From Escherichia coli (lineage in GTDB: Bacteria > Pseudomonadota > Gammaproteobacteria > Enterobacterales > Enterobacteriaceae), in NCBI RefSeq assembly GCF_003334405.1, contig NZ_QOWM01000003.1: a DNA stretch of 64,000 nucleotides; one strand, written 5' to 3'. The notes under the pieces are model-generated. The model was given only the letters and a program-made list of their open reading frames with translations. It did not search any database and was not told where the DNA came from. Position numbers and translations under genes: made by a program. Each line of letters opens with the position of its first letter. Within the stretch, counting starts at the first letter, position 1. This document shows positions 5,441 through 7,567 of this stretch, piece after piece.

Positions 5441-7567
5441 TTAGTCCTCGTTTACAACCTTCTGCTGGGCGGCTTTTTTGGCCTGAGCGCGGGCAATAGC
5501 CGCGGCAACTGCCGCTTTGCGCGGATCAACCTGTTCTTCTGGTACCGCATTAGCCTGTTGCTGTTCCAGCTTGCGTGCTTTGGCGCGTGCAATAGCCGCT
5601 TCGACGGCAGCTTTGCGCGGATCAACCTGTTCTTCTGGCTCCGCATTAGCCGGTTGCTGTTCCCGTTTGCGCGCTTTGGCTCGGGCAATAGCGGCTTCGA
5701 CGGCGGCTTTGCGCGGATCGACCTGTTGTTCTGGCTCGGCATTAGCCTGTTGCTGTTCCAGCTTGCGTGCTTTGGCACGGGCAATAGCGGCTTCGACGGC
5801 GGCTTTGCGCGGATCGACCTGTTGTTCTGGTTCCGCATTAGCCTGTTGCTGTTCCAGCTTGCGCGCTTTGGCGCGGGCGATAGCTGCTTCAACGGCAGTT
5901 TTACGTGGATCAGCAACGGTTGCTGCGTCGTTAGTTTGCTGCAGTTCTGCCTGTTTCGCTCTGGCTTGCGCTTTACGGGCTTCCCGTGCTGCAATAATTG
6001 CACTGTTATCCGGGCGTTCGCCCGCTTTAATCACAATAGGCTGTGTAGCCTGGGCCTGTTTCTCTTTCACCCGCGCCAGAGCGGCAGCAATCGCATCTTT
6101 ATCTTTGGCTGCAGGTTGAACGGCTGCGCTCTTATGTCGTTCAAGGCGAGCCGCTTTTTCGCGCTCCAGACGAGCCTGGCGCGCTTCGAAACGCGCTTTG
6201 GCTTCTGCGGCGCGCTTTTCTTCCTGACGAATAGCCGCAATTTCAGCTTTTTCCTGACGGAAATATTGCACCAGGGGAATATTGCTCGGGCAAACCCACG
6301 CGCAAGCCCCACATTCAATGCAATCAGCAATGTTATGCGTGGTAGCTTTATCGTGTTGCTGACCTTTGCTGAACCAGTACAACTGTTGCGGCAAAAGATC
6401 CGCAGGGCAGGCGTCAGCACAGGCGCTACACCGGATGCAGCTTTGTTCTTCCTGTGGTTCGCCAAGTTCATTGGCAGAGGGAGCCAACAGACAGTTGGTA
6501 ATCTTTACGACCGGGACATCCAGCCATGGCAAGGTAAAGCCCATTAGCGGGCCACCCATAATCACCATTTGATCGGCAGAGGGGCAGAATCCGGCATCAT
6601 TCAATAAATGACGCACTGGCGTCCCCAGCCGTGCCCAGACGTTGCCCGGGCGAGCGATTGCTTCGCCAGTCAGGGTTACAACACGCTCGGTAATCGGCTC
6701 GCCATCAATAACGGCACGTTTCACTGCATAAGCAGTGCCGACGTTTTGCATTAATACGCCGATATCGGATGAACGCCCGCCATGTGGAACCTGCTTCCCG
6801 GTCAGAATGTAGGTTAATTGTTTAGCACCGCCAGAAGGATATTTGGTTGGAATCACCCGCAGAGAAATATCGTTAGAGTCCGCCAGCACCGCGCGCAGCA
6901 TGGAAATCGCCTGCGGTTTGTTATCTTCAATGCCGATAAGAATTTCGCGTGGCTGCAGAATATGCGCAAGAATGCGAATACCCTCTACGACCTGAGCCGC
7001 GCAATCCTGCATCAAACGGTCATCGGCGGTAATGTACGGCTCGCACTCAGCCGCGTTGATAATCAACGTTTCAATCTTATCTCCGCCACCCTGCAATTTA
7101 ACGCCTGTCGGGAATCCTGCACCGCCCAGCCCGGCAACACCAAACTGATGTATGCGCTCGATTAACTCTTCGCGACTGCGAGTGCGATAATCGGCCCAGC
7201 CGTCGCGCGGGATCCAGCAGTCTTCACCATCGGCATCAATAATCACGCTTAATTCAGCTAAAGCTGAAGGATGAGCCGTAGAGTGGGGCGCAATAGCCGT
7301 AACGGTACCCGAGGTGGGCGCGTGAACAGGCAGCATTTTGCCGCGACCACGGGTAAGCGGCTGGCCGCGCAATACTTTATCGCCGACGCTAACGCACAAC
7401 TCACCTTCAGCGCCAATATGCTGTTTCAGTGGAATAACAAAACGCTGCGCCAGGGGTACCTGGCGCAGGGGTGTACCGTTGGACTGGGTTTTCATCTCCG
7501 GTGGATGGATGCCGCCGTTGAAATCCCAGATTTTATTTTTTCTGAATGCAGAGAATAACTTAAGCAT
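5441..7567 (-). CDS. rsxC: Ion-translocating oxidoreductase complex subunit C, with repeat-containing C-terminal tail
   Basis: 708-aa ORF; N-terminal part recognised as RsxC with two 4Fe-4S ferredoxin Cys motifs ([24 protein letters not shown]); C-terminal tail is built of 32-aa repeats. Confidence 0.93.
5480..5910 (-). repeat. In-frame 96-bp tandem repeat array inside rsxC (about 4.5 units)
   Basis: The motif gcgcggatc(a/g)acctgtt(c/g)ttctgg recurs at about 5517, 5613, 5709 and 5805 (period 96 bp); encodes repeated ...[32 protein letters not shown]... units. Confidence 0.85.

Follow-up and report, generated by a model that had tools for sequence, protein, structure and literature searches.

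Is the tandem repeat at the 3' end of this rsxC gene a genuine, heritable allele, and if so, how did it reach its present length and what might the repeated peptide do? We addressed these questions in a 64,000-nucleotide stretch of an Escherichia coli genome assembly, henceforth referred to as the window. Taken together, the evidence makes it quite probable that rsxC ends in a slowly evolving minisatellite that preserves the reading frame, that the window holds a genuine, heritable allele of it, that this allele arose by loss of a unit from the K-12 type, and that it encodes a tail built as a string of helices.

An initial annotation, made from the sequence alone, had named the gene rsxC and given its product 708 residues; Pfam, NCBIfam and RefSeq, in its record of an identical allele, support the name, and the reading frame does encode 708 aa. 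The gene and its surroundings comprise the following features.

5441..7567, minus strand: rsxC coding sequence, 708 aa plus stop (ORF list; NCBIfam NF003454; identical allele WP_000915784.1 in UMNF18)
6278..7528, minus strand: catalytic core, aa 14-430, with RnfC_N, Nuo51-type FMN/NADH, SLBB and two 4Fe-4S motifs (Pfam; structure alignments)
5912..6232, minus strand: non-repeated helical segment rich in Ala, Arg, Glu and Lys, aa 446-552 (composition; motif scan; AlphaFold, which predicts long helices)
4382..5440, minus strand: rsxD, its start codon abutting the rsxC stop (ORF list; UMNF18 RefSeq annotation)

The Pfam scan matched PF13375 (aa 14-115), PF01512 (aa 139-283), PF10531 (aa 296-344) and the Fer4 family (aa 373-430), and its RsxC matches stop at aa 430, before the repeats. 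The NCBIfam RsxC equivalog NF003454 scored 867 bits against a cut-off of 345 and matched aa 12-570. The open reading frames, together with the RefSeq annotation of the near-identical UMNF18 segment, give the operon order rsxA-B-C-D-G-E followed by nth, with rsxB upstream of rsxC and rsxD, rsxG, rsxE and nth downstream. Judged by domain order, equivalog match and operon context, the 708-residue product is the RsxC/RnfC subunit of the Rsx/Rnf complex, whose electron transfer keeps SoxR reduced (K-12 literature, as cited in PMC4759930). The core is homologous over aa 14-445 (E = 1e-83 to 1e-121) to the solved RnfC chains of Azotobacter vinelandii (8ahx_C), Clostridium tetanomorphum (7zc6_C) and Acetobacterium woodii (9eri_C), and these structures align within RsxC aa 14-498 only. 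Unlike the RsxC studied here, the solved chains (435-496 aa) have no repeat tail and thus do not inform its structure.

The UMNF18 record (NZ_AGTD01000001.1) is 100% identical to the window over the rsxC segment, differs by 13 substitutions in the first 55 kb and diverges from position 55018. In UMNF18 an island of ~6.4 kb, with an integrase and a KilA-N protein, splits ynfE; in the window ynfE is intact (53991-56417, minus strand). Together with ynfF (51507-53933, minus strand) it forms a pair of tandem paralogues of 808 aa each, which are selenate/DMSO-type reductase subunits. An Rfam scan of the full 64 kb returned no family at gathering score.

Tandem Repeats Finder placed the rsxC array at 5487-5912, where it counted 4.4 copies with a period of 96 bp and 89% matches, found no indels and gave a score of 635. 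This bears out the initial description of about 4.5 near-identical 96-bp units in the C-terminal tail, and the interval first given for them, 5480-5910, lies within 7 bp of the computed one. No other tandem repeat in the whole 64-kb window scored 50 or more. The gene for the repetitive basic protein Asr, placed at ~42802-43110 by coordinate transfer from the UMNF18 annotation, showed no tandem repeat at score 50 with the same program. In the reading frame, 32-residue units start at aa 553, 585, 617 and 649, and a diverged 28-residue unit starting at aa 681 ends the protein; DPRK opens all five. A motif scan found two further, degenerate copies upstream.

5816..5911, minus strand: repeat unit 1, aa 553-584, 32 residues (reading-frame register; K-12 comparison)
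5720..5815, minus strand: repeat unit 2, aa 585-616, equal to K-12 unit 3 (reading-frame register; K-12 comparison)
5624..5719, minus strand: repeat unit 3, aa 617-648, equal to K-12 unit 4, with L-to-R and Q-to-P changes (register; K-12 comparison)
5528..5623, minus strand: repeat unit 4, aa 649-680, equal to K-12 unit 5, with an E-to-V change (register; K-12 comparison)
5444..5527, minus strand: terminal unit, aa 681-708, 28 residues (register; tails of relatives)
6050-6103, minus strand: degenerate motif copy 1, aa 489-506 (motif scan)
5945-6010, minus strand: degenerate motif copy 2, aa 520-541, 22 residues (motif scan; conserved in Yersinia)

The end motifs of the four full units read QQV, QQV, EQV and EQV. 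The units lie head to tail without a spacer, contiguous in frame and with a length that is a multiple of three, as in a coding minisatellite. The terminal unit of E. coli is the copy nearest to the gammaproteobacterial consensus of the RsxC/RnfC tails that we retrieved. It also overlaps the signals of the next gene: AAC GAG GAC TAA ATG reads across 5438-5452, with the rsxC TAA (5441-5443) adjoining the rsxD ATG (5438-5440). From its position, GAG GAC, the last codons of rsxC, is the rsxD Shine-Dalgarno sequence, and the terminal repeat unit would double as the rsxD translation-initiation region. As this site sits in the terminal unit, gain or loss of internal units leaves rsxD translation untouched.

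A unit count read from one assembly may be wrong, and we therefore weighed the reading that the array had collapsed. Many database RsxC entries are labelled 'partial' and stop inside the repeat at contig ends, which indicates that the array commonly breaks short-read assemblies and gives the caution of the initial annotation a real basis; these fragments come from several genera. Against a collapse in this assembly, at least 22 independent complete genomes, NCTC and other finished assemblies among them, contain the same 1060-bp segment letter for letter, its units in the same order, and ~100 genomes match it at ≥99%. An error that reproduced such a widespread natural allele would be a striking coincidence, the window length is shared by ~18% of complete genomes, and we regard the artefact as very improbable.

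We surveyed array length in two ways. The census searched 5,425 complete E. coli genomes with whole-array queries at ≥80% query cover, and the length sample used the two unique flanks only as query in 59 evenly spaced genomes. A length of 676 aa was seen in 1/59 genomes of the sample, and alleles of at most 676 aa in 99 of the 5425 census genomes (~2%). The window length, 708 aa, was found in 10/59 (at most 708 aa in 1100/5425; ~18%) and is the second commonest class in E. coli. The 740-residue class comprises 37/59 genomes exactly, or 40 with near-740 spans, and alleles of at most 740 aa were detected in 4357/5425, giving a share of ~60-67%. The three near-740 spans pooled with this class measured 1296, 1300 and 1303 bp, of which 1300 corresponds to 741 aa and 1303 to 742 aa. 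Lengths of 772 and 806 aa were found in 6/59 and 5/59 sampled genomes, and lengths of 772 aa and above together make up ~17-20%; these longer-class shares rest on the samples, as the 772-residue whole-array query gave a non-monotonic count (3024) with its two match pieces not always joined. A second sample (n = 29) gave the same length-class proportions. Named examples among complete genomes are SCU-482 (676 aa), O157:H7 and O145 (772 aa) and TUM13770 (806 aa). It had been suspected from the window alone that copy number might vary, and aligning rsxC from multiple genomes did yield lengths of 676, 708, 740-742, 772 and 806 aa; rather than being uniformly 708 aa, in which case there would be no polymorphism here, reference alleles are most commonly 740 aa among complete genomes.

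Two spans that were 1 bp short were traced to a G run in rsxD, outside the rsxC array. The window carries seven G at 5167-5173, and O6:H16 2011EL-1370-2 and O145 RM9873-C1 have six; in these two RefSeq complete genomes rsxD is annotated as a frameshifted pseudogene. The six-G variants are probably homopolymer sequencing errors, not biology.

All 16 alleles that we examined, from 676 to 806 aa, are in frame. Some units in the arrays of TUM13770, clone D i2 and A10 measure 99 nt (33 aa) and carry a fourth Gln codon in the QQQ stretch, which explains the lengths of 741, 742 and 806 aa. By its sequence, this extra codon reflects slippage by a single triplet within the larger 96-bp repeat.

We compared the window gene with rsxC of K-12 AB1157, which has 2223 nt and encodes 740 aa. 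The initial annotation had given K-12 RsxC as 740 aa and one unit longer than the window product, and the difference is indeed exactly 96 nt: removing one 96-nt unit from the K-12 gene gives the window gene with 0 residual mismatches over 2127 nt.

5768..5823, minus strand: interval of the missing K-12 unit 2 (a 96-nt deletion at any of 56 places in the K-12 gene yields the window gene without mismatch)

Over these 56 positions the flanking units are identical, and the breakpoint therefore has no finer placement.

The direction of the change is the part of the argument where two readings compete. The second unit of K-12 (u06) is found at position 2 in O22:H8 too, where the other units are diverged, and K-12-type alleles occur at ≥99% identity in 1355 genomes, compared with ~100 of the window type. 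With the identity of the two genes at all other sites, these observations nest the short allele within the long one and favour a contraction. The opposite reading takes the five-unit arrangement of the window as the older state and the six-unit allele of K-12 as a one-unit expansion, with no contraction in the window. K-12 unit 2 has the sequence of a hybrid that would join nt 1-47 of unit 3 to nt 48-96 of an O22:H8-type first unit, which is the product expected of a duplicating unequal exchange. The O157 and B2 arrays open with two QQV units as the window does, which counts against a contraction, and all five window units have positional counterparts in the O157 array, the extra units of which lie elsewhere. 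A unit identical to K-12 unit 2 also arose independently in M7424 as a deletion hybrid, so unit identity is itself subject to convergence. However, an expansion has to account for the presence of this unit at position 2 of O22:H8 amid diverged units, either by the same hybrid arising twice or by one extra substitution, and for a K-12 type that is more than ten times as frequent and otherwise identical to the window gene. We consider the expansion unlikely. A one-unit contraction of a K-12-type six-unit allele by in-register misalignment, which the initial annotation had raised as a possibility, is most likely, as far as the unit sequences allow us to judge.

Unit-by-unit comparison of the 16 alleles, which contain 55 distinct unit sequences, suggests how such steps arise. 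In every strain the first unit and the terminal unit can be told by signatures of their own, and the internal units are mosaic. The M7424 array equals that of capsule-mutant-23a minus 96 nt exactly, SCU-482 equals M7424 minus 96 nt exactly, and O112ab:H8 equals O22:H8 minus 96 nt with 2 residual mismatches. With the window and K-12, this makes three exact whole-unit steps between alleles of the same background and one near-exact step. The three further pairs differ in the position of the breakpoint within the array, and in two cases hybrid units remain. Whole-unit steps with hybrid units are the signature of in-register misalignment between neighbouring units, to the extent that it can be read from the alleles. 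Tandem repeats of ~100 bp in E. coli are lost mainly by RecA-independent replication slippage. Slippage and unequal sister exchange give the same products, and the present data do not separate them.

The course of events that we propose is as follows. Replication slippage or unequal exchange between sister strands would bring neighbouring 96-bp units into misalignment, in register, and each such event would add or remove whole 32-codon units; in this way a K-12-type six-unit allele would have lost its second unit to become the window allele. The terminal unit would stay fixed, since the protein ends with it and the rsxD ribosome-binding site lies in it. The array does not behave as a phase-variable contingency locus that switches frame or expression: its unit is 32 codons and 16/16 alleles are in frame. 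Nor did we find the instability within clones expected of such a locus, as identical alleles are common to many unrelated isolates and, in a recent typing study (PMC13185298), ST11 and ST21 each have a single repeat type.

The repeats also affect the opposite strand.

5336..6547, plus strand: antisense ORF, 403 aa, judged spurious (ORF list)

This frame runs in the exact reverse-complement register of the rsxC codons. As the RsxC tail contains no TTA, CTA or TCA codons, no stops occur in that register and the frame is open automatically. It is open in 16/16 alleles and gains 32 codons per added unit, and it is not annotated in the RefSeq record of the identical allele in UMNF18. Openness in all 16 alleles is what a real overlapping gene would show, but it follows here from the register alone; the length shifts with the array, and the product would be an unannotated low-complexity repeat. 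We assign the overlapping gene a negligible chance. The frame is, on its codon composition, a compositional by-product, which accords with its initial description as a spurious ORF created by the repeats.

We then considered what the units encode. Among the four full units of the window, pS is 0.34 and pN 0.037, and across 45 distinct 96-nt units pN/pS is 0.09 (about 0.1). Split by position within these 45 units, pN/pS is 0.04 over codons 1-18 and 0.15 over the rest, which forms a linker. These ratios indicate that the units are under strong purifying selection. Since the differences are mostly synonymous, the units are old copies held alike at the protein level and not recent duplicates. Net charge per unit is +4 in the helix core and -3 in the linker. 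In the AlphaFold model, predicted from the single sequence, each unit forms one helix of 20-26 residues that starts at the proline of DPRK, and the helices are separated by low-confidence linkers of 8-12 residues; a global fold is absent (pTM 0.26). The prediction for each unit is thus a single basic helix with an acidic linker after it. We also considered an amphipathic helix that binds membranes and set it aside, as inspection of the sequence places charged residues all round the predicted helix.

The helix core is widespread. A pattern of DP(R/K) followed by 15 letters recurs in RsxC/RnfC tails across Gammaproteobacteria, and a longer form (DP(R/K) followed by 18 letters) is repeated two to four times in the RsxC/RnfC of relatives, counted in fragments retrieved with the tail. 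Genera that bear the core include Salmonella, Klebsiella, Yersinia, Dickeya, Lonsdalea, Proteus and Providencia, as well as Haemophilus, Mannheimia, Vibrio, Aeromonas and Pseudoalteromonas; the core is also repeated in Erwinia RsxC (PMC10587187). These genera come from a tail-only protein search that scored the 8000 candidates sharing most words, which were mostly short fragments, so that the search shows genera and is unfit for a length census. The linkers of relatives are unrelated sequences of ~12 to >50 residues that are themselves repeated within each species. A shared core joined by unrelated linkers points to an ancient and conserved core, and each lineage seems, from these tails, to have expanded or homogenised its arrays independently.

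The array lies clear of the domains that bind FMN/NADH and Fe-S clusters, and would amount to a string of short basic helices split by acidic, proline-flanked linkers. Selection would preserve the peptide sequence of every unit, most strictly in the helix core, and would constrain the number of units only loosely (four to eight DPRK units). As for function, the helices would most likely serve for docking or spacing, in repeated form, in the cytoplasmic arm of Rsx/Rnf. A more specific proposal is that the tail is multivalent, an array of ancient basic helices of 20 residues each that recruit a partner to this arm, with copy number setting the strength of recruitment; we put it forward tentatively, as fairly improbable. 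Candidate partners under this proposal are an acidic redox protein, DNA-bound SoxR and another Rsx subunit, and natural length alleles, if it is true, would differ in redox-stress signalling. Our search of the literature found no described function for the RnfC tail, and the helix motif string returned the Erwinia paper only (PMC10587187). An rsxC-I525F mutation from a phosphate-starvation evolution experiment, judged 'null or neutral' (PMC4759930), falls in the degenerate motif copy at aa 520-541. The biological interest of the locus lies in this helix, which is conserved in RsxC/RnfC tails, under selection and absent from all solved Rnf structures.

Variation of this repeat within E. coli has been published. 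Jothi et al. (BMC Genomics 2026, PMC13185298) use the 32-aa RSXC repeat as a typing marker with types R4-R7 and report that repeat number correlates weakly with virulence genes (rho 0.32) and with resistance genes (rho -0.28) across 83 genomes. These correlations invite the reading that copy number is adaptive, the number of helices tuning Rsx activity or partner capture, and that the association with virulence and resistance is causal. The motif is strongly purified by selection and conserved across orders, which adds to its appeal. However, the same text reports that all ST11 are R7a and all ST21 are R6a; with repeat number fixed within sequence types, clonal structure is the simplest account of the correlations. 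The same length also arises on unrelated backgrounds with different unit content, and the paper reports no phenotype, its authors placing function outside the tests of their study. We consider a causal role of copy number distinctly unlikely, and prefer to see the array as a slowly evolving minisatellite whose length is a stable, lineage-informative marker. Differences in RsxC length between strains should accordingly not be taken for errors or truncations.

We compared the window array with known systems. The closest is the RSXC scheme itself (PMC13185298), which describes the same gene, the same DPRK-initiated 32-aa unit and the same variation in copy number and end motifs. The window array is thus an ordinary, previously described coding minisatellite. 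By count the window allele is five-unit ('R5'), but against the published table its end motifs match neither R5a (EQI) nor R5b (EQV/EKV/EQI). The eight-unit, 806-residue class found here is missing from the 83-genome panel as described there, and the paper contains neither a nucleotide-level reconstruction of events nor a selection analysis. The literature, searched for VNTR under the former gene name ydgN, yielded no older typing locus. In Erwinia amylovora, RsxC has a 40-aa repeat in 0-5 copies from residue 553 that is likewise used for typing (Ham & Park 2023, PMC10587187), and the same group described a homologous RsxC repeat in E. pyrifoliae (Plant Dis 2024; reference 15 of PMC13185298). 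The start of the Erwinia array at residue 553 and the first 16 residues of its unit are identical to those of E. coli, whereas its unit is longer (40 aa compared with 32 aa) and has a longer Ala/Pro-rich linker. Zero-repeat alleles exist in Erwinia, and the shortest E. coli class found here keeps four DPRK units. The spa repeats of Staphylococcus aureus are a coding minisatellite used for strain typing, in a surface-exposed protein under immune selection. Typing minisatellites of this kind share with the rsxC array in-frame units, whole-unit changes, hybrid units and lineage-specific profiles. RsxC differs from spa in its cytoplasmic location, in the length of its units (96 bp) and in changing so rarely that its repeats are fixed within sequence types.
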